The notes beneath the pieces were generated by a model. The model ran no database searches and had not been told where the DNA came from. It was given only the letters and a program-made list of their open reading frames with translations. Positions 8,515 through 63,465 of a stretch of DNA of 64,000 nt are shown here, piece by piece; the first letter of the stretch is position 1, and every line of letters begins with the position of its first letter. Made by a program: the position numbers and the translations under genes. This DNA is from a virus: IMG/VR virus record IMGVR_UViG_3300042114_000252. The stretch is one strand, 5' to 3'.

Positions 8515-9144
8515 ATGAAAAAAATTAAAAACATAAATACACAAGAAAAAAATTCTAACCAAAAAGAAATAGCATTAACAATGTATCAAGAAATTATAGA
8601 AAACAATAATATTTTTGTAAAAACAAAAGGATCAAAATTTTTTAAATCTTTTTCTACTACACAACAACCAAGAGCTACAGTAGTAGGTTGCTCTGATTCA
8701 AGATTTCAAATCAATATGTTAGATTCAACTCCTGAAAATGACTTATTTATAATTAGAAATATTGGAAACCAATTTAAAAACAACATTGGTTCAATTGATT
8801 ATGGATTAAACCACTTGAACACACCATTACTATTAATTGTTGGACATACTCGTTGTGGAGCTATAAAAGCAGCACTTGAAGATAAAGAACATACAGACAA
8901 AGAACTTTTATCACTAAAATTTCTTAATAAAGAAAAATTTATTGGAAATGAAATAGAACAATGGACACAAGCTGTTGAAAAGAACATTCATAAACAAATA
9001 TCATTTTGTTTAAAAAGATATAAAGAAAAGGTACTAAACGAAGAACTCACAATAATAGGAATAATTTATGATTTAGCTAATGACTTAGGAAAAGGACATG
9101 GAAAACTACACACTATTAATATTAATGGAAAAGAACAAAGATAG
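8515..9144 (+). CDS. Beta-class carbonic anhydrase
   Basis: Zinc-ligand motifs CSDSR and HTRCG, plus DLFIIRNIGN. Confidence 0.95.
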   Translation: MKKIKNINTQEKNSNQKEIALTMYQEIIENNNIFVKTKGSKFFKSFSTTQQPRATVVGCSDSRFQINMLDSTPENDLFIIRNIGNQFKNNIGSIDYGLNHLNTPLLLIVGHTRCGAIKAALEDKEHTDKELLSLKFLNKEKFIGNEIEQWTQAVEKNIHKQISFCLKRYKEKVLNEELTIIGIIYDLANDLGKGHGKLHTININGKEQR

Positions 9145-42163: not shown

Positions 42164-42853
42164 TTAAACTATATCTATTTCCAAAACTTCCTGTTGAAAA
42201 ACATTCATTGTACCTAATTCTATAGCAGTTAATTTATTCCCATACACACAACCAGTATCAATTCCATAATATTGTTTATTTTCATCTATTAACACTTCAT
42301 TAAAATTACAATGCCCAAACACATTCACTATGCCTTTATCTAATAAAAGAATATCTTCCCAATCTTCTTTATAAGAATCATTATCTATCCTGTTTGACAT
42401 TAAAGACTTTTTACTTTTTTCAACATCTTTTCTTTTATAATATGGTAATCCATAACCATGAGTAATAAAATAAGTTATTCCATTAATTTCTTTTTCTATA
42501 TATGAAGGTAATTCTTCAACCCATTTTATATGTTTATCAATTATTTTTAAATTATTTCTATAATTTTCTATTGTTTTAATACCACCCCAAGAAGGATGGT
42601 TAGACCAATTTGATATTTTTTTATTTCTAAATAAAACATCCCTAATATAATTATAAAACAAATACTCATGATTACCTAAAACACATTGAAAATTATTGTT
42701 TATTACATATTCCATAGTGTTTAATGGATAATTCCCTTTATCCATTAAATCACCTACAAATATTAAATCTTTTTCTTTTGGTAATTGCTCCAATAATTTT
42801 AATAATGTGTTAAAACATCCATGAACATCACCTATTACATATGTTTTTTTCAT
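42164..42853 (-). CDS. Calcineurin-like metallophosphoesterase (Ser/Thr protein phosphatase family)
   Basis: GDVHG, GDLMDKG, GNHE and IDTGCVYG. Confidence 0.93.
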   Translation of the reverse strand: MKKTYVIGDVHGCFNTLLKLLEQLPKEKDLIFVGDLMDKGNYPLNTMEYVINNNFQCVLGNHEYLFYNYIRDVLFRNKKISNWSNHPSWGGIKTIENYRNNLKIIDKHIKWVEELPSYIEKEINGITYFITHGYGLPYYKRKDVEKSKKSLMSNRIDNDSYKEDWEDILLLDKGIVNVFGHCNFNEVLIDENKQYYGIDTGCVYGNKLTAIELGTMNVFQQEVLEIDIV

Positions 42854-43398
42854 TATATTTTTCTTCCATATATATTCTTTAATTTTAACACAATTAGATA
42901 TTTAATCACTAAAAAAAGTATCAACACAACTAAAATTGCTTTCCAAGCAAAACTAAATAGATTAGCATAAGGTTTATATGTTGCAGCATCTAATCTTTCA
43001 GCTCTTATCAATTCTTGATTTAGTCTTTTTAATTCTAAAAAATAAAAATCTTTATATTTTCCATTTCCATACAAAACAGGGTAAAAAAGGGCTTCTTGTT
43101 TAAAAAATGAATGATAATACTTACCTTTAATATCCCAAAAGACACCATTATTACAATAATCTTCTAAAGCTTCTTTTTGAATAGTATCATATTTCATTTT
43201 ATCTAAAGAAGGATTAGCAACATTAGAACAAAAACTATATCTTACTATTTCAGAAGTAATTTCTTTAACTTTTTCACTATTTCCATAACCATTCAAAGTT
43301 CTATAATCATTTACAAAAATAAATGCCAATATAATTACAAAAAACATTACCAAATATTTTCTAATATTAATTTTTTCTAAATTGTTCTTTTCTATCAT
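42853..43398 (-). CDS. Two-TM hypothetical protein
   Basis: ORF track, 181 aa; N- and C-terminal hydrophobic segments. Confidence 0.7.
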   Translation of the reverse strand: MIEKNNLEKINIRKYLVMFFVIILAFIFVNDYRTLNGYGNSEKVKEITSEIVRYSFCSNVANPSLDKMKYDTIQKEALEDYCNNGVFWDIKGKYYHSFFKQEALFYPVLYGNGKYKDFYFLELKRLNQELIRAERLDAATYKPYANLFSFAWKAILVVLILFLVIKYLIVLKLKNIYGRKI

Positions 43399-43513: not shown

Positions 43514-44884
43514 TTATTTTAAGACTATATCTATACTTATATTTTCTATAGAATCATTTTCATTCATTTTAGTTATTGTTTTAATAACTTTTTTTAATAT
43601 ATCTTTATCTTTTTCTAAAATAAATGAATCTAACTTTATAGAATATTTATTTTCTTTATTTTTTTCTTTTTCTATTGGTTTTATTGAATCAAAATTTAAA
43701 TTACTTGCTTCTATTTTTTTTACATCAAAATAATATAATTCGTAATAATTATTATTTATATCAAAAATAATATGTTGAATATTTTCTATATTTTCTTTTT
43801 GAATATTCGAAATTGAAATATTAGACTTTAAATAATTTATTCCTACTTCTTTCATAATTTCCATTATAAACTGTTCTAAAGACATATCAACATCTTCTTT
43901 ATATTTTTCTATTTTTTCTTGACTAACAACACCACCTAACATCAAATTTTCTATTAAACAAGCTAAACTAAATGAAAAATAAAAACAATAAACAATATTA
44001 TTTGTTTCTTTTTCATATACAACTACTTTTTTATATTTTTTATCACAACTAAGAGGATTGTCTAAAAAAATCTTATCCATATCTATTTTAGAATCTTTTT
44101 CTATACCTATTTTTTCTACTTCAAAATATCTACCCATATTAACTAACATTTTTGAAGCTATATTTTTATCATTTATTAGTTTTTCAATAGTATTTTCATT
44201 TTCAATTCCAAAAACACTTTTTTTATTAATAAACTTTTTTTCTATTTCTAATCTTTCCATTACTTCTAAAGCAGTTAAACCAAAGAAAAATTCATTATTT
44301 AGAGTTCCATCTTTTTTAATTCTATAATCTATAAATAATAAATTATATTTTTTATTATTTATTAAAAGTGTTAAATCTGTTATAACATCTTCATTTTTTA
44401 TTGTAAGATTATAATTATTTAATTGGATATGAGAAACACTTGTTTCTATTTCTAAATTATCAGCCATAACTAAAAAATCTTTATTAAATATGAATTTTAA
44501 ATTTTCTTCTATTTCATCAAATTCTATCATATTTTCATCTTTTAATTCACCTATTCCACCTAAACTAAAATATTCTATTAAACAAGCCAAATCCAAAGAA
44601 ATAAAAAAAGTAAACATTAATTTATTATCAATTTTATTTTTTATATTGAGTTTTTTAAAATATTTATTTTCTACTTTTGTATTAATAAAATTTAATATAT
44701 TTGTTTCTACAATAGAAACACTTGTACTAATACACTCCTCTAAAGACTTTATTATTTTTTGATTTTGTGACTCAATATAATATTCAAGATTAATTTTTTC
44801 TATTCTATTTTTTATATATAAATAATTATCTAAATCTTCTTTTTTTATATGAAATGGTTTTGTGGTGGTATTTTTTTCTATCAT
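43514..44884 (-). CDS. Protein with two FliY-N/CheC-like domains
   Basis: Internal duplication LACLIEYFSLGGIGELK / LACLIENLMLGGVVSQE; resembles the Campylobacterota FliY N-domain from recall. Confidence 0.5.
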   Translation of the reverse strand: MIEKNTTTKPFHIKKEDLDNYLYIKNRIEKINLEYYIESQNQKIIKSLEECISTSVSIVETNILNFINTKVENKYFKKLNIKNKIDNKLMFTFFISLDLACLIEYFSLGGIGELKDENMIEFDEIEENLKFIFNKDFLVMADNLEIETSVSHIQLNNYNLTIKNEDVITDLTLLINNKKYNLLFIDYRIKKDGTLNNEFFFGLTALEVMERLEIEKKFINKKSVFGIENENTIEKLINDKNIASKMLVNMGRYFEVEKIGIEKDSKIDMDKIFLDNPLSCDKKYKKVVVYEKETNNIVYCFYFSFSLACLIENLMLGGVVSQEKIEKYKEDVDMSLEQFIMEIMKEVGINYLKSNISISNIQKENIENIQHIIFDINNNYYELYYFDVKKIEASNLNFDSIKPIEKEKNKENKYSIKLDSFILEKDKDILKKVIKTITKMNENDSIENISIDIVLK

Positions 44885-44890
44885 TGTTTT

Positions 44891-45121
44891 TTACTTCCTT
44901 ATTTTAATTATGTTACTATGTACCATTTGTAAAATCCTATATAAGTCATCCTTATCGTAACCACTTACTGTATCATCTTCAAATAAGATATTTACTCTAT
45001 GAGGAAGAACTTTTACTGATTTTATTTTATCTTTTGAAAAATATTCTTGTAAACTATTTAAATACATTTGATTACATGAATCAATATGATTAACTTTATT
45101 TGTTTTTATTTCATATAACAT
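44891..45121 (-). CDS. Hypothetical protein
   Basis: ORF track, 76 aa. Confidence 0.6.
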   Translation of the reverse strand: MLYEIKTNKVNHIDSCNQMYLNSLQEYFSKDKIKSVKVLPHRVNILFEDDTVSGYDKDDLYRILQMVHSNIIKIRK

Positions 45122-45146
45122 ATTTTACTTCCTTATTTTAAATTTA

Positions 45147-45878
45147 TTAAATTATTTCTATGTTTATTTCATCAAAATAAGATATTGATTTCACATTAAG
45201 ATTTTCTATTATATTTTGTAAAATAGAATTATCTTCCTTTATATCTTCTTTTTTTATTTTTATATTTATTTTTGTGGATTTTCTTTTATCATTTATATAA
45301 TATTCTTCTTTTTTATCATTATTAATTTCTTTTTTCATATATTCTGGATATTTAATCAATCCTCTTAAAACATTATCTACATTATTTAATTCTTTATCTA
45401 CCCTATAATCTATATAAAATAATTCATAATTTTCTCCATTAATAAACAATTGCAATCTATTTAAGTAAGAATTTTTTGCTCTAAATGTATCTTTATTTAT
45501 TTTTCCATTTGAAATAATATTTTCTATATTCAAAAAACAATCTAAATCTAGCATTTTTATATCAAAAACTTCTTGTAAGCAATCATGTATTTCATTATCA
45601 AATATAATATTATTACTATCTTTTAATTCACCTATTCCAGCCAAACAAAGGTATTCTATTAAAGAAGCTAATCTATTAGAAACAAAAATCGAAAATATAG
45701 TTTCTTTATTATATTGATTTACAAAACTTATTTTTTTTGTTTCTGGAATTAACATTACTTCTAAATCTTCATAAGTAAATGAATAATTTGTAACTAATTC
45801 TACACCTGTGCTAACATATAGTTCCAATCTATCAATTATTTTTTTTTCTATATTTTTATTATATTCTATCATATCCAT
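45147..45878 (-). CDS. FliY-N/CheC-like domain protein, paralogue of 43514..44884
   Basis: FSIFVSNRLASLIEYLCLAGIGELKDSNNIIFDNEIHDCLQEV. Confidence 0.55.
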   Translation of the reverse strand: MDMIEYNKNIEKKIIDRLELYVSTGVELVTNYSFTYEDLEVMLIPETKKISFVNQYNKETIFSIFVSNRLASLIEYLCLAGIGELKDSNNIIFDNEIHDCLQEVFDIKMLDLDCFLNIENIISNGKINKDTFRAKNSYLNRLQLFINGENYELFYIDYRVDKELNNVDNVLRGLIKYPEYMKKEINNDKKEEYYINDKRKSTKINIKIKKEDIKEDNSILQNIIENLNVKSISYFDEINIEII

Positions 45879-45920
45879 TTATTTATTTTCCCTTATTTTT
45901 TTTAACACATTATATATATA

Positions 45921-46232
45921 TTAAGAGTTGATTTTAAACAACCAATATTTTAATTCTTCATCTATATTTTCTATATTTAAATCATCTTTTCCACAAACTA
46001 CATTATTTTCTTTTAATATAAAAAAGCTATATTTATTATATATATCAAACATAACTTCTATATATAAATCCATTTCTTTATATTTCCCCCAATATATATA
46101 ATCCAATTTCTCCTTTTCCAGAAACCATAATTTTTGGACACTCTATTTGGTTTTCATTTAATATGTTTAAAAATAATTCACAAGTAATTATTATATCATT
46201 AGAAGGACATATATATTCCACCATAACCGTCC
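45921..46232 (-). pseudogene. 3' remnant of a (W)DGYGG...GEIGLYW-type gene, cut by the tnpB element and frameshifted twice
   Basis: DGYGGI, PSNDIIITCELFL...GEIGLY and WGKYKEMDLYIEV lie in three successive frames. Confidence 0.55.
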
Positions 46233-46344: not shown

Positions 46345-47862
46345 TTATAATAATATTTTACAAAACTCATAGTTACTTTTGATTTTTACAGGGTTACAGA
46401 TTTTGTGTTTATGTTTTATAAGCCAGTCATAGTTAGTTCTGTTATCAGTTCCAACCTTTATATGATTAGCACTTGCAGACATATCACAATTCCATTCAAA
46501 ATATCCCATTTTTTTCATATTTTTTTTATAAAGATTTTTATTCTTAAATGTTTTTTTTTGTGTAATATTGTTAGTGTATAAACCACGTTTTGCGCGTTTC
46601 CCGTTCGAAACATTAGCAAAACCTTGTTTTTGAGCACCAACTACATCAGAAAAAACTGATTCTTTACTTGTATAAGCCTCATCTATTACATGAACTCTGA
46701 TTCCCACTTCATTACACTTCTCCTCTATTAATTTTAATAACTTACCAAATGGAATTTGATAAAATTGTTGTTTAGTACTTTTTCTTTGTTTGAAAGTTTC
46801 TTTATCTTCTTTTTTAGTGTTCTTTAAAAATGATAAATTTTTACTTATGTAAAAATCTGACACATTTGCTTTTAATAAAAATTCTACAACTCTTTTACTT
46901 ATTGCATGGAATTCTGAATAGTAATAATTACTTCTGTTAGCTAGATTTTGTTTTCTTTTTTTATTTATTTGAATACCTATTTCGTCATATTCGGGATAAT
47001 ATTTATGAGGATATAATTCGATTAAAGTTGTATGTTTAGATAATTCTTTTTGAAGATCATCATTATTTTTGTTGAATTGATAGTTTTTATATTTTATAGG
47101 TTTACCGTCATAAATTATTGATTTTGTTTCTGTATCTTCTACAAAAATTGACAACAAGTTATTTATTCCTACATCACAACCAGCATTTTTTCTAACACTA
47201 TTGTTAAATTCTCCAGTAGTTGCATTATATAAAAGAGATAGTTTATTTAATTCTAATTCTTGATAAACATATGATATATTAACCCAATATTCTCCATTTG
47301 TATATGAAAAATTTACTGCTTGAATACTTTTTTCATTGAAAATAATTCTTGAAATATTTTTATTGTTTATGTAAAAATATTTCATTTTTTTACCAAGATT
47401 TATTCCTATCTTTTTTTTATCTTTTTGTTTCAAAGACCACTTTGTTTGATCTAGTGGCAAACTCCATCTGTTAATTTGTGAAAGTCTTTTAGGTTGAATG
47501 AAATTGCTTTTTATTCCTTGTTTTAGGTTTGTTAAGTGCTTTTTAAAGTCCCCATTTAACCTTTCTAATAAAGTTGCTATATTATGGGAGTTAAGAACTT
47601 CACAAACTTTTTGCATAGGTTCTAATGTTTCTTTATATTTTTGTTTAAAAACATTTACTTCTTCTTCTTTTTTACCACCTTTTGTTTTAAATAAGGCTGG
47701 ACGCATAAAACTTTTGTTTAAAAAATTAAAATCATTATGTTTTTTAAATGCAATTAATATCATATTTTCTAAATGTTTGTATTGAAAAAGAATCTTATGT
47801 GTTTCTTCGTCCCCATTTATTCGCATTTTTAATGTTTTGTATTTTTTATTATTAGATCTCAT
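46345..47862 (-). CDS. tnpB: TnpB RNA-guided nuclease with rearranged RuvC-II
   Basis: RuvC-I GCDVGINN, DEAYTSK, GKRAKRGLY and RuvC-III NCDMSASAN. Confidence 0.9.
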   Translation of the reverse strand: MRSNNKKYKTLKMRINGDEETHKILFQYKHLENMILIAFKKHNDFNFLNKSFMRPALFKTKGGKKEEEVNVFKQKYKETLEPMQKVCEVLNSHNIATLLERLNGDFKKHLTNLKQGIKSNFIQPKRLSQINRWSLPLDQTKWSLKQKDKKKIGINLGKKMKYFYINNKNISRIIFNEKSIQAVNFSYTNGEYWVNISYVYQELELNKLSLLYNATTGEFNNSVRKNAGCDVGINNLLSIFVEDTETKSIIYDGKPIKYKNYQFNKNNDDLQKELSKHTTLIELYPHKYYPEYDEIGIQINKKRKQNLANRSNYYYSEFHAISKRVVEFLLKANVSDFYISKNLSFLKNTKKEDKETFKQRKSTKQQFYQIPFGKLLKLIEEKCNEVGIRVHVIDEAYTSKESVFSDVVGAQKQGFANVSNGKRAKRGLYTNNITQKKTFKNKNLYKKNMKKMGYFEWNCDMSASANHIKVGTDNRTNYDWLIKHKHKICNPVKIKSNYEFCKILL

Positions 47863-47924: not shown

Positions 47925-48827
47925 TTATAATTCTTTGATTAACATTTCTTGCAATTCTTTAGATAAATCTTCCATTTTAGGAATAACAACATTAACAGTT
48001 ACAATCAGACTTCCATATTCTTTTGTAGATTGATTTGCCAATACTCCTTGATCTTTGATTTTAAACCTTTGATTTTGTTTCGTATTTTTTGGAATAGATA
48101 ATAACACATCTTTATATAATGTTTTTACATTTACTTTTCCACCAAAAATAGCATCTTTTAATGATATATTTATAGTCAAACTTAAATCATTTCCATTTCT
48201 TTTATATTCTTCATCTTCCAAAACATTTAAAGTTATATATAAATCTCCCCTATTTTGGCCACTATATATTCTTCCTTTTCCTTTAATTCTAAGTTTCTGT
48301 CCAGTTCTTACACCTTGGGGAATTTTTATAGAAATATTTTCATTTTGCATTGAAATTGTTTTTGTTCCTCCAATAATAGATGTTCTAAAATCAATATTTA
48401 AACTAGACTCTATATCTAAATCCTTATTTGAAAATCCCTTATTCCCAGAATATCCTCTACTAGTAAATGGATCAAACCCTTGACCTCCACCAAAACCAAA
48501 ATCTTCACCTGTTCTTTTTTTATTAAACATATTCTTTAATATATCATTTAAATCCATATCACCATAAGAAGCTTTTTGTGATTGTGAAAAATCATGAAAA
48601 TTTTGTCCACCAAAAATATTATCACCATATTGATCATATTCAGCTTTTCTTGTTTTATCTCCCAAAACTTCATAAGCAGCATTTATTTCTTTAAACTTAT
48701 CTTCTGCTTCTGGTGATTTATTTAAATCAGGATGATATTTTTTTGCTAATATTCTATATTGTTTTTTTATTTCAGCTATTGTAGCATTTTCTGCAACTTC
48801 TAATGTTTTATATAAACTTTTTGCCAT
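47925..48827 (-). CDS. cbpA: DnaJ-family co-chaperone CbpA (J domain + DnaJ_C, no zinc finger)
   Basis: HPD motif, KFKEINAAYEVL and GGQNFHDFS, typical of Campylobacterota CbpA. Confidence 0.9.
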   Translation of the reverse strand: MAKSLYKTLEVAENATIAEIKKQYRILAKKYHPDLNKSPEAEDKFKEINAAYEVLGDKTRKAEYDQYGDNIFGGQNFHDFSQSQKASYGDMDLNDILKNMFNKKRTGEDFGFGGGQGFDPFTSRGYSGNKGFSNKDLDIESSLNIDFRTSIIGGTKTISMQNENISIKIPQGVRTGQKLRIKGKGRIYSGQNRGDLYITLNVLEDEEYKRNGNDLSLTINISLKDAIFGGKVNVKTLYKDVLLSIPKNTKQNQRFKIKDQGVLANQSTKEYGSLIVTVNVVIPKMEDLSKELQEMLIKEL

Positions 48828-48842
48828 TCTTTATATACTCCT

Positions 48843-49076
48843 TTATATTTTAGTAATCATATCGTTCCATCTTCTAGTTACATTATCTATAGCATGAGGA
48901 CTTATTTTTCCACCATTATGTTGAGCTTGAGAAAAGACAGAAACTAAAAATGTTGCTGTTTCATATGATAAATTAGCATCCATTAAAATTGTTTTAAACA
49001 AAGCCTCCTTTTCCCAAACTTCTTTTATTTGAGAAATATCATCTACTGTTATTGTATATTTAGGTTCTTCTTGCAT
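48843..49076 (-). CDS. Hypothetical protein
   Basis: ORF track, 77 aa. Confidence 0.65.
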   Translation of the reverse strand: MQEEPKYTITVDDISQIKEVWEKEALFKTILMDANLSYETATFLVSVFSQAQHNGGKISPHAIDNVTRRWNDMITKI

Positions 49077-60183: not shown

Positions 60184-62421
60184 TCAAAACATAACAATCC
60201 TAATATTCCCACTATCATAAATTCTTCTAAAACCTATATTATATAAATTATAAGTTTTACTAATATTATCATTATATTCATAATTTAAATTAACATTTTT
60301 ATTATTTCTATATTTTAAATATTCTTTTTTATTTTGTTTTAATTCATTAACTATATTAATAATTTTGTTCTTATTATTTAATTCTTCTTTTTGATATATT
60401 TTGTGAATATTATTATTTAAAATATATAAATAATTTGGTTTGGTTTTAAATGCTATAACATTAGTTTCATTATTATCTACTTCATTATTAATTAACATTA
60501 AATCATTAAAACTATCAATCAATGAAAACTTATTCCATCTTCTATTAGCATAATAAGTTATTTTTTCTACATTTTGTGTGGAAAATAATATATTATTTAT
60601 ATCAGTATTATTTGTTTTTAAATAATTAAACAAATATTTAATTACTTTATAATTATTTAATTTTGAATCAATTTGAAAATCTTGTTCTATAAAATCTATT
60701 GAATTACATATATCTACAATAGTAAATTCTTTTTGTTGGAAGTTTGAGACATTGTTAACTACAAAACCTAAAAAACCATATATTAAACTTATTAAATTAC
60801 TAGTTTTTTTATCATATAAACCAAAAAATACTACATTATTTTCTTTATGTTTTAAAAATAAATTATTAAAACTATATTCATTGTATTCCAAAGAATTATT
60901 TTCTAAAAAAGTAATGATTATTTCTTTATTTTTTTGAATATTATTGTAGTCTATTTCTTTTATATATATATTTTCATTATATTCATAACTTAAATTAACA
61001 TTTTCATTATTTTTATTATTTAGTTCTTTTAATTTAATAGAAATATTTTGTTTTAATATATTTAACCATATTTTTTTCTTTTGTTGATTTAGCCACTCAT
61101 CTTCATTAATTTGAAATAAACTAATCCCTTTTTCTTCACATAAATTAGTTTTAATTTGATGCAAATATTTTTCTTTTGCTTCTTTTTCAAAATTATTAAA
61201 AATAGAACGCTTATGTTTTCCAAATGAATGATACAACAAACCATTATATTCTATAGCTATATTAAGCTTAGGAATATAAATATCTAATTCTTTTCTTACA
61301 TTTTGTAAAGCTTTTCTATCATTAATTAAAACTTCTTCTTTAGCTAAATCAAGAGGAAACATTTTTAATATTTCTTTTTGTAATTCCTTTTCCATATTTC
61401 CAAAACTGTCTAATTGTATTCCTTCAAATGCTTTTTTGTTATTTTTTAAATAAGTGTTTAAAGATGTTATATTTATATTAAAAAATAATAAAACCTTTTT
61501 TTTATCTAATTTTTTTTTTCCTCTATTGATATATACAAAATTATTTATTATATATTCTACATTAAATAATTCTATATTTAATATATGTTTTTGAGTCGGA
61601 CTTTTACAACCATATCTTTTTAAACTAGTATTTATTGCTCTTTCTCTTATTTCTTTATTTTGTAAAGTATATTCTTTTCCATAATTTTCTAAACAAGTAA
61701 CCTTTCGTTTTTCTTTCACTTCTTCATTTTGTAGAGCATATTCATTTCCATATCTTTCTAAACATGTTTTTTTTGATTTATTCCTTACTTCTTTATTTTG
61801 TAGAACATATTCATTTCCATATTTTTCTAAACATGTCTTTTTTGATTTCTTTTTTACTTCTTCATTTTGAGAAGCATATTCTACACCATATCTTTCCATT
61901 GTAGTTTTTTTTGCTTTATTTTTTATTTCTTCATTTTGAAATGGATTTTCACATCCATATTTTTTTAATGAAACATTCTTTATTTTTTCTTTTATTTCTT
62001 CATTTTGAAATGGATTTTCACATCCATATTTTTCTAAACATGTTTGTTTTATTTTTTCTTTAAATTCTTCTTTTTGAAATGGATTTTCACAACCATGACG
62101 TTCTAAACAAGTTTTTTTGATTTTTTCATACCTACACTTATTTGAACAAGTTGAAGAATATAATATTCTATTAAATTTAGTTGGGTTTAAATTACATATT
62201 TCACACATATTTCTTTTTGTAATATTATTATTTAAACAATAATACCTTTCTTCATTTGATATTGTATTATCATTAGGAAGAAAACTAGTAAAGTGAAATA
62301 AAGATTCTTTGAGAATTATATCATTTTTTAGATATTGATTTATTTTTGAAGAAGACAAAAAACTTGTTTTAGTTAAACAATTTGTCTTTAAAAATTTAAG
62401 TAATTCTTCTTTTGAAAGCAT
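60184..62421 (-). CDS. Putative homing endonuclease (Hef/Vsr-like nuclease domain) with eight 23-aa TCLEKYG repeats
   Basis: Repeats TCLEKYGCENPFQNEEIKEKIKN; nuclease motif ELDIYIPKLNIAIEYNGLLYH...QINEDEW. Confidence 0.75.
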   Translation of the reverse strand: MLSKEELLKFLKTNCLTKTSFLSSSKINQYLKNDIILKESLFHFTSFLPNDNTISNEERYYCLNNNITKRNMCEICNLNPTKFNRILYSSTCSNKCRYEKIKKTCLERHGCENPFQKEEFKEKIKQTCLEKYGCENPFQNEEIKEKIKNVSLKKYGCENPFQNEEIKNKAKKTTMERYGVEYASQNEEVKKKSKKTCLEKYGNEYVLQNKEVRNKSKKTCLERYGNEYALQNEEVKEKRKVTCLENYGKEYTLQNKEIRERAINTSLKRYGCKSPTQKHILNIELFNVEYIINNFVYINRGKKKLDKKKVLLFFNINITSLNTYLKNNKKAFEGIQLDSFGNMEKELQKEILKMFPLDLAKEEVLINDRKALQNVRKELDIYIPKLNIAIEYNGLLYHSFGKHKRSIFNNFEKEAKEKYLHQIKTNLCEEKGISLFQINEDEWLNQQKKKIWLNILKQNISIKLKELNNKNNENVNLSYEYNENIYIKEIDYNNIQKNKEIIITFLENNSLEYNEYSFNNLFLKHKENNVVFFGLYDKKTSNLISLIYGFLGFVVNNVSNFQQKEFTIVDICNSIDFIEQDFQIDSKLNNYKVIKYLFNYLKTNNTDINNILFSTQNVEKITYYANRRWNKFSLIDSFNDLMLINNEVDNNETNVIAFKTKPNYLYILNNNIHKIYQKEELNNKNKIINIVNELKQNKKEYLKYRNNKNVNLNYEYNDNISKTYNLYNIGFRRIYDSGNIRIVMF

Positions 62422-62430
62422 TAAAAAAAA

Positions 62431-63465
62431 TTATTCATCAGAATCAGAAGATTCATCAGCTAAAACTACACTTGAATCAGTTTTAATTACTTTTAATATT
62501 TTTTCTTCTATTTCTTGAGCTATTGAAGGATTTTCTTTTAAATAAACTTTACTATTTTCTTTTCCTTGCCCTAATTTAGAATCATTATAACTAAACCAAG
62601 CACCAGCTTTGTCAATAATATTTAATTTAACTCCATAATCTATTAACTCTCCCAATTTAGAAATACCCTCTCCAAACATTATATCAAACTCTGTTGTCTT
62701 AAAAGGGGGCGCTACTTTGTTCTTAACTATTTTCACTTTAGTTCTATTTCCAATAGGGTTTTCTCCTTGCTTTAAAGTAGCAATTCTTCTAATATCTAAC
62801 CTAACACTAGCATAAAATTTAAGAGCATTTCCTCCAGTTGTTGTTTCAGGACTTCCATAACCCATCATACCAATTTTCATTCTAATTTGGTTAATAAAAA
62901 TAACTGTTACATTCATTTTATTCATAATACCAGTTATTTTTCTCAATGCTTTTGACATTAATCTAGCTTGAACTCCAACTTGTTGATCATCCATATCTCC
63001 ATCTATTTCAACTTTTGGAGTAAGTGCAGCAACACTATCCACAACAATTAGATTAACAGCTCCACTTCTTACAAGAGTTTCAAGTATTTCTAAAGCTTGT
63101 TCACCATAATCAGGCTGAGAAACCAAAAGATTTTCAACATCTACACCAATATCTTTAGCATATTTTATATCTAAAGCATGTTCAGCATCTATAAATGCAC
63201 AAACCCCCCCATTTTTTTGGCATTCAGCAATAGCATGTAAAGTAAGTGTTGTTTTTCCTGAACTTTCTGGTCCATATATTTCTATAACTCTACCTTGAGG
63301 AAGTCCCCCAACACCTAATGAAACGTCTAAACCAATAGAACCTGTACTAATTACATCAATAGGCTCTATTACTTTATCTCCAAGTCTAATCACTGTCCCT
63401 TTTCCAAAAGACTTATCTATTTGTTTAATCGCATTTTCTAAATTCTTTTTTTGATCTTCTGTCAT
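62431..63465 (-). CDS. recA: Recombinase RecA
   Basis: [21 protein letters not shown] and [19 protein letters not shown] (Campylobacterota-type). Confidence 0.98.

Follow-up and report, generated by a model that had tools for sequence, protein, structure and literature searches.

Multiplied, SPOA-less paralogues of the FliY CheC-like domain on a putative mobile element of an Arcobacteraceae-type host: candidate mimics at the flagellar switch

Introduction

The FliY proteins of Arcobacteraceae and other Campylobacterota combine a CheC-like domain at the N-terminus with a C-terminal SPOA/FliN domain. A domain of the same superfamily forms the middle portion of FliM, in which the face bearing the GGxG motif binds FliG. 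In Campylobacter jejuni the fliY gene comes after fliM (PMC6946799), and the FliY protein binds the chemotaxis protein CheO (PMC9665402). FliY of the Epsilonproteobacteria has been reported to lack phosphatase active sites (PMC6946799), and the role of its CheC-like domain in the motors of Campylobacter, Helicobacter, and Arcobacter is an acknowledged open question (PMC6946799, PMC8809382). Here, we describe three tightly spaced, co-oriented genes (minus strand, 43514-45878, in the order P0002, P0003, and P0001) in a 64,000-nucleotide stretch of viral DNA (IMG/VR record IMGVR_UViG_3300042114_000252; hereafter the window, taken from a contig some 93 kb long), two of which encode three copies of a FliY-N/CheC-like domain. 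Our literature search returned no published account of a mobile element that carries an SPOA-less, multiplied FliY domain; the domain family itself is known, whereas its presence on a mobile element, multiplied and without the ring anchor, is new as far as we could find.

Results

Three copies of one domain in two neighboring genes

A domain of ~165 amino acids (aa) is present once in P0002 and twice in P0001. The P0002 gene (45147-45878; this and all other coordinates of the three-gene block refer to the minus strand) encodes 243 aa, comprising one FliY-N/CheC-like domain (about residues 1-165, 45384-45878) and a tail of 70 to 80 aa that is not an SPOA domain. The P0001 gene (43514-44884) encodes 456 aa, with a 29-aa leader, two tandem FliY-N/CheC-like domains (copy 1, residues 30-200, 44285-44797; copy 2, residues 231-400, 43685-44194), and a short C-terminal tail (residues 401-456, 43517-43684) that likewise is not an SPOA/FliN domain. 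When compared by BLASTP, P0002 and copy 1 of P0001 were 38% identical over 158 aa (E 3e-19), and the degenerate copy 2, which is the most divergent of the three and has the longest branch in the tree, matched P0002 with an E value of 0.003, so that the repeat lies far beyond chance. A hidden Markov model (HMM) of five element domains bounded the copies at residues 1-175 of P0002 and residues 28-204 and 231-400 of P0001; this model contains the window copies and its scores are circular, and it was used here for boundaries. It found no fourth copy among the 116 open reading frames (ORFs) of the window. The BLASTP repeat and the HMM boundaries agree with the earlier note on this DNA, which was made from the sequence alone and had described three copies of one domain in two neighboring genes. 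The strings quoted there were present as well, namely LASLIEYLCLAGIGELKD (residues 70-87) and DNEIHDCLQEV (residues 94-104) of P0002 and LACLIEYFSLGGIGELKD (residues 99-116) and LACLIENLMLGGVVSQE (residues 307-323) of P0001, along with the 'LE...ST.V' helix ahead of two of the copies, which reads RLELYVSTGVELV and SLEECISTSVSIV.

Homology to host FliY

When 184 Arcobacteraceae genomes were searched with a profile built solely from the five element domains, one gene was matched in each of 156 genomes, in frames of 280 to 310 aa and with per-genome E values down to 5e-12; second matches in some of these genomes were weak, fell on a low-complexity tail, and were not extra copies. The matched gene is fliY. 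Its product aligned end to end with NCBIfam NF006272 (E 3.5e-44, under the curated cut-off of that model), possesses a C-terminal FliN/SPOA domain (FliMN_C, E 6e-18), and carries the NCBI name FliY, and the element profile fell in its N-terminal domain. In the reverse search, an HMM of 77 host N-domains picked exactly two window ORFs, P0002 (E 2.6e-5) and P0001 (E 2.4e-5), and it also matched P0004 and P0005 (E about 3e-10), two relatives from outside the window that are described below. Alignment of the element and host FliY N-domain profiles by hhalign gave a probability of 97.5% (E 5.9e-12), and BLASTP of P0004 against FliY gave an E value of 5e-12 over 153 residues. The identity between element and host FliY sequences was about 17 to 28%. 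The likeness that the earlier note had drawn between these copies and the N-terminal CheC-like domain found in FliY of Campylobacterota thus reflects real homology, as indicated by the profile searches in both directions, BLASTP, and hhalign.

The element HMM scored 26 to 48 bits on all 120 Arcobacteraceae FliY sequences and 3.6 to 10 bits on FliY of Helicobacter pylori, C. jejuni, Wolinella, and Sulfuricurvum; it did not match host FliM (P0129) or the stand-alone CheC-like ORFs of the hosts. Because the domain resembles the Arcobacteraceae form of FliY specifically, capture from an Arcobacteraceae-type host fits these data. This affinity rests on the HMM scores and not on the tree, which supported a single origin of all five element domains (98/95) and grouped P0002 with copy 1 of P0001 at a support (90/73) below the threshold of the tool. 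With three groups in a trichotomy, an assumed root, and long branches, the tree does not separate an element clade inside the Arcobacteraceae from one beside them. Taken together, the sequence comparisons identify the three copies as paralogues of the N-terminal CheC-like domain of Arcobacteraceae FliY.

In the two Arcobacteraceae loci that were read (L087:1474-3387 and L091:250-1914), the start codon of fliY is TTG, and the genes immediately after it are motA- and motB-like. Several other observations were made on the host side. A stand-alone frame of 216 to 218 aa, distinct from FliY and barely over the Pfam CheC cut-off, was seen in two of four Arcobacteraceae genomes (L084, G001:C1:2115119-2115220; L085, G004:C2:375269-375370). 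The FliY match of H. pylori hp60 was split between frames of 196 and 112 aa (L102, G185:C1:659927-660759), and in one Arcobacteraceae genome the FliY motif lay in a 96-aa frame (L110, G094:C1:2219012-2219167). These split or short frames may represent frameshifted or phase-variable fliY alleles, or assembly errors.

Predicted fold

AlphaFold modeling of P0002 residues 1-175 from an 82-row alignment (5 element and 77 host FliY rows) gave a predicted local distance difference test (pLDDT) score of 78.5 and a predicted template modeling score of 0.77. The model contains a helix at residues 3-22, strands at 26-34, 47-54, and 60-67, a helix at 68-78 followed by more helices, and strands at 118-125, 139-146, and 149-157; this order (helix, three strands, helices, three strands) is the alpha/beta pseudo-twofold topology of the CheC-like superfamily, in which a helix and three strands are followed by a second such unit. 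The top 38 matches in a Foldseek search of the PDB all belonged to that superfamily, with Thermotoga maritima FliY (4HYN) the best (E 2e-7) and the FliM middle domain of H. pylori, CheX, and CheC among the others, an outcome that bears out the structural relationship to FliY, CheC, and FliM for which the earlier note had proposed a Foldseek comparison. Matches among the Swiss-Prot models were to FliM, Bacillus subtilis FliY, CheC, and CheX. Using VIA-align with model residues 1-167/172, we obtained Z values of 9.9 to 12.2 against the FliM middle domain, FliY, CheC, and CheX, compared with 3.3 for the next unrelated fold. The single-sequence ESM Atlas model of P0002 was nearest to clusters of FliN/FliY, FliM, and CheC (template modeling scores of 0.50 to 0.54), and language-model features of P0002 and P0004 pointed to CheX, CheC, and FliM with scores that provide leads. 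Two models were set aside: AlphaFold run on a 5-row alignment yielded an unusable pLDDT of 39, and the P0001 model in the ESM Atlas was of insufficient quality (pLDDT 0.38). According to the P0002 models, the element domain has a CheC/FliM-like fold.

Retained and missing features

Alignment with host FliY revealed that the element domains kept the first helix ('LE..lS.SV.I') and a block comprising a strand, a helix, the loop (L/A)GGxG(D/E)LK, and a further helix, and the most conserved segment between element and host was the strand-helix-'LGGxG..K'-helix portion. The N-terminal CheC-like domain of Campylobacterota FliY, with its LMLGGxG..K and D.E..DA..E block, is therefore represented in the element family. 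The GGxG loop is intact in copy 1 of P0001 (LGGIGELK, 44540-44563), P0004, and P0005. Its counterpart in P0002 is LAGIGELK (45621-45644), with the first Gly of the FliY/FliM 'GGxG' replaced by Ala in the alignment with Campylobacterota FliY. In copy 2 of P0001 the loop is disrupted: its sequence is LGGVVSQEKIEKYK, in which 6 residues have been inserted and the last Gly is lost. By analogy, the conserved segment would correspond to the top surface that the homologous middle domain of FliM turns toward FliG. Pfam detected no PF02154 FliM domain in the element proteins.

No SPOA/FliN domain (PF01052) was matched in the element proteins at E<=10, and hhalign of the element tails against the host FliY C-terminus returned a probability of 0.2%. 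The tails of P0001, P0002, P0004, and P0005 were weakly alike (tail-to-tail BLAST E 0.001 to 0.02 in a tiny database). The phosphatase signature of CheC and FliY, D/S-x3-E-x2-N(-x22-P) in the first helix of each half, was not present in the element domains: the catalytic Glu and Asn pair was absent at both CheC sites of every copy in the alignment, and PF04509 gave no match at E<=10. Site 1 reads K-x2-D, K-x2-K, and the like, and site 2 reads D-x3-E-x2-D in P0002, E-x3-F-x2-N in copy 1 of P0001, and D-x3-E-x2-R in P0004. Our alignment also agrees with the published report in that host FliY is without the phosphatase active sites. The copies were previously described as catalytically dead on the basis of a degenerate phosphatase motif; the motif is indeed degenerate in all three, but they are not killed enzymes, since host FliY is non-catalytic too. 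Because FliY of the Epsilonproteobacteria has no active sites, the copies inherited a domain that was non-catalytic beforehand. What truly separates the element copies from FliY, according to the domain searches, is the absent SPOA/FliN anchor.

A CheY-docking-like peptide in two relatives

P0004 and P0005 both begin with MAMTREEIEALM, in which EEIEALM (residues 6-12) fits the pattern [DE]E[ILV][DE]AL[LMI]; host FliM reads DEIDALL at residues 8-14. The pattern was drawn from the FliM peptide (consensus LSQxEIDALL) and host FliM after the motif in P0004 had been noticed. In 100,000 shuffles, the strict pattern occurred anywhere in the protein at a frequency of 1.2e-4, and in no shuffle did it fall within the first 30 residues. 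A BLASTP comparison of the P0004 leader with the N-terminus of FliM found nothing, as the motif is too short, and the pattern test was used instead. Host FliY has no such docking peptide. The EEIEALM sequence of P0004 and P0005 hints at docking of phosphorylated CheY (CheY-P). In the P0001 leader, EDLDNYL (residues 16-22, 44819-44839) resembles a weak and possibly degenerate 'EIDAL'-like motif; it fits a loose, post hoc pattern with chance occurrences of 3.4% anywhere and 0.14% in the first 30 residues, and it serves as a lead only.

Relatives of the element proteins

Scans of the three proteins of the block against Pfam, NCBIfam, and PHROGs gave nothing usable, with no CheC, CheX, or FliM match even at E<=10. 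A word-indexed protein search with P0002 returned only P0002 itself, and a PDB sequence search with the profile of the three copies produced 0 matches. Searching all 1.84 billion representative proteins with HMMER yielded a single outside relative, P0004 (307 aa, E 6.7e-6; L002:553-1476). Its sister P0005 (84% identical; L003:1824-2762) resides on an 18.9-kb contig that is phage-like, with genes for an endolysin-like transglycosylase, a phage-type tRNA-His guanylyltransferase, and MazG. Searches for relatives in INPHARED phages and PLSDB plasmids (megablast or tblastn) and in IMG/VR and JGI metagenome contigs found none, and no protein with this fold was present in the BFVD viral structure library. 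Between P0004 and P0005, the ratio of nonsynonymous to synonymous substitution rates (dN/dS) was 0.50, which is relaxed yet below 1, with 23.75 synonymous changes observed versus 14.6 expected (chi-square p about 0.008). The long intact ORFs at 19% GC and this dN/dS value argue that the element family is real and constrained.

The three-gene block, its neighbors, and the carrier element

The P0003 gene is a 76-aa ORF (44891-45121) located between the two FliY-like genes; its product had no detectable relatives, and scans of Pfam, NCBIfam, and PHROGs gave no match of note. Shine-Dalgarno-like sequences (AAGGAAG or AAGGGA) precede all three genes: AAGGGA lies upstream of P0002, AAGGAAG is 8 nucleotides before the ATG of P0003, and AAGGAAG overlaps the end of the 76-aa ORF ahead of P0001. 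Given these sites and the intergenic gaps of 25 and 6 bp, the genes look like one operon, and P0003 is probably co-transcribed with both FliY-like genes. A consensus scan identified a promoter-like site, TTTAAA-18-TATAAT (45909-45938), ahead of the block; this is weak evidence, as such sites were rarer in the region than in its shuffles and the scan is uninformative in AT-rich DNA.

The window has a GC content of 17 to 27% (~19% at the FliY-like locus), and nearly all of its genes lie on one strand. A cave metagenome was the sole sequencing run found to contain this DNA. Its cargo includes a 16-tRNA array, a C5 methylase, TnpB elements, a homing-endonuclease-like ORF, a GNAT protein, and many orphans. 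The RecA protein of the element (62431-63465) is 80 to 85% identical to Arcobacteraceae RecA; the flanks of its gene had nothing in common with 80 chromosomal recA loci, and thus no chromosomal synteny was apparent. Among the ~40 larger window ORFs scanned with Pfam and/or PHROGs, a set that left out two proteins of ~2,500 aa and about a dozen mid-size ORFs, there were no flagellar, capsid, terminase, portal, or conjugation/replication genes, in keeping with the remark in the earlier note that no flagellar structural genes are nearby. From these gene contents and the RecA similarity, we read the carrier as a large mobile or extrachromosomal element (phage or plasmid) of an Arcobacteraceae-type host.

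The FliY-like genes are surrounded by orphan genes and by genes for a membrane protein, a NinI-like phosphatase, TnpB, and a DnaJ-like protein; there is no chemotaxis gene among them, and the setting is not a flagellar operon. A gene pair with overlapping stop and start codons is located 115 bp downstream of the FliY-like genes (42164-43398). One product is 181 aa long and has hydrophobic segments at both its N- and C-terminus; the other, encoded two genes downstream of the block, is a NinI-like Ser/Thr phosphatase (phrog_246, E 4e-37). These two proteins may be part of the same host-directed module as the FliY-like genes. On the other side, a TnpB insertion (46345-47862) lies between the FliY-like operon and a gene for a DnaJ/CbpA-type co-chaperone (47925-49076), which has a J domain and a DnaJ_C domain with no zinc finger detected and is found downstream of a 77-aa orphan ORF. 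Elsewhere in the window, a beta-class carbonic anhydrase (8515-9144, PF00484 E 1e-25), an unusual item of cargo, is encoded on the plus strand amid minus-strand genes, and a 745-aa DUF7487/homing-endonuclease-like ORF (60184-62421) starts 10 bp after recA.

Discussion

We propose, at odds that we judge to fall a little short of even, that the element proteins act as soluble mimics of the FliY domain, without catalytic activity, and compete at the interface of the switch with the chemotaxis system, a role suggested by their sequences and the predicted fold. Such SPOA-less mimics would bind the partners of the resident FliY domain, which could be CheY-P, an accessory protein of chemotaxis, or the FliM or FliY domains next to it, and would thereby decorate the flagellar switch or compete with it. 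The tandem P0001 would act as a covalent pair of FliY-like domains, and the FliM-type docking peptide of the P0004/P0005 branch would point to CheY-P capture, at least there. As an outcome, a cell in which the element resides would be changed in the switching of its motors, in chemotaxis, or in motor assembly. Rather more tentatively, we suggest that the element captured, duplicated, and re-tooled a host FliY CheC-like domain whose products hijack the flagellar switch or soak up CheY-P.

Several points weigh against this proposal. The role and ring position of the FliY CheC-like domain have been reported as unclear, assembly in H. pylori does not require the FliY N-domain, and FliY is reported not to bind FliG (PMC8809382, PMC6946799). 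The identity to host FliY is low, the similarity outside the motif region is weak, and the binding specificity may have drifted. The window proteins are without a clear CheY-docking peptide, as P0002 has neither leader nor peptide and P0001 has only the loose match. The host was assigned solely by RecA similarity and FliY affinity. In addition, most rows of the AlphaFold alignment were host FliY, so the model is dependent on the homology claim, although the ESM Atlas model agrees with it.

A captured FliY domain might instead have been exapted for a job unrelated to motility, as a scaffold, an adaptor for another host target, or an anti-defense factor, with the GGxG motif kept for folding only. 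The very long branches, the 17 to 28% identity to FliY, the disrupted loop in copy 2 of P0001, the new C-terminal tails weakly common to the family, and a neighborhood in which orphans occur along with a Ser/Thr phosphatase and a membrane protein, but nothing related to chemotaxis, all suit such a role. We nonetheless consider it rather unlikely: the best-conserved stretch between element and host is not the hydrophobic core but a loop-helix surface that is a binding site in the FliM homologue, and the FliM-type docking peptide of P0004 and P0005 makes sense only in a chemotaxis or switch setting. The binding logic of the mimic proposal would hold identically if the FliY-like domains were only localization tags that dock the element proteins, along with their tails or the 76-aa product, at the C ring or the flagellated pole, bringing element functions to that site and leaving motor output unchanged. 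An SPOA-less domain that bears variable tails and three tightly linked genes that could make a complex are compatible with tagging, but no recognizable effector domain is attached according to Pfam, NCBIfam, and PHROGs, and we regard this explanation as improbable.

It is distinctly improbable, in our estimation, that the genes are passengers, i.e., fliY fragments picked up by the element that are decaying or drifting without function. At 19% GC it is very unlikely that open frames as long as 243 and 456 codons would last in the absence of selection, the ribosome-binding site of each gene is good, three copies are present, dN/dS is below 1 for P0004 and P0005, and the motif is kept across samples of different studies; set against these observations are the great divergence of the sequences, the relaxed dN/dS of 0.5, and the rarity of the family, of which the 1.8 billion representative proteins contained just two further relatives. 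Active CheC/FliY-type phosphatases that turn off the chemotaxis signal by acting on CheY-P would share the CheC-like fold, and both the D-x3-E-x2-D reading at the second site of P0002 and the CheY-docking-like peptide of P0004 and P0005 could be cited in their favor. The Glu and Asn pair is, however, missing from either site in all copies, PF04509 does not match at E<=10, and the parental FliY lineage has been reported to be without active sites (PMC6946799), which together leave this possibility extremely improbable.

If the element proteins are mimics of the FliY domain, they would represent the first case, as far as we could find, of an element steering swimming or chemotaxis by means of a copy of a motor subunit, and they would offer a natural means of probing what the FliY N-domain binds. 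As the element copies keep the most conserved surface of the domain, they would be ready baits for that partner. Should the motor be blocked or re-tuned, this would constitute a new element route to host behavior (e.g., flagellum-dependent phage exclusion, energy saving, or a change in dispersal), and it would show that domains of rotor proteins lend themselves to use as dominant-negative regulators.

Comparison with known systems

The closest described protein is FliY of the Arcobacteraceae and other Campylobacterota (NF006272), which has a homologous N-domain and has the loop, the first helix, and the predicted fold in common with the element copies; neither side possesses the phosphatase sites. 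FliY contains a C-terminal SPOA/FliN domain, whereas the element copies do not and would thus have no known entry to the C-ring base. FliY also sits among motor genes (fliM-fliY in C. jejuni and fliY-motA-motB at two Arcobacteraceae loci), whereas the element copies do not. Unlike FliY, they are duplicated, including a tandem fusion, bear new short tails, and are carried by a mobile element.

The best structural matches were to the middle domain of FliM (PDB 4FHR, 4FQ0, and 2HP7; Salmonella C-ring 8UMD), with Z values of 11.5 to 12.2 over ~160 residues, and the GGxG loop that contacts FliG in FliM is found at the equivalent place in the element domain. P0004 and P0005 may further resemble FliM in an N-terminal EIDAL-type peptide, whereas the element proteins differ from FliM in their lack of a PF02154 sequence match and of SPOA. 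With CheC, CheX, and the phosphatase-type FliY proteins of Thermotoga and Bacillus (1XKR, 1XKO, and 4HYN), they have the fold in common (Foldseek E 2e-7 to 4HYN; Z 10.8 to 11.6), but the D/S-x3-E-x2-N motifs are absent or degenerate in the element copies, which makes a phosphatase role unlikely.

Mobile-element proteins that put a motility organelle of the host out of action for superinfection exclusion, such as the inhibitor of type IV pili from a filamentous phage (PMC8764522) or the phage TldR regulators of flagellin (PMC13418256), provide an analogy of purpose only, in that a factor encoded by an element acts on the motility apparatus of its host. Going by title and abstract, neither agent is presented as a duplicate of a subunit from a host organelle, and our literature search found no described element factor that is a paralogue of a rotor-protein domain and acts on the motility apparatus. 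The inhibitor and TldR act on pilus components or on flagellin transcription, whereas the agent proposed here would be a paralogue of a rotor-protein domain.

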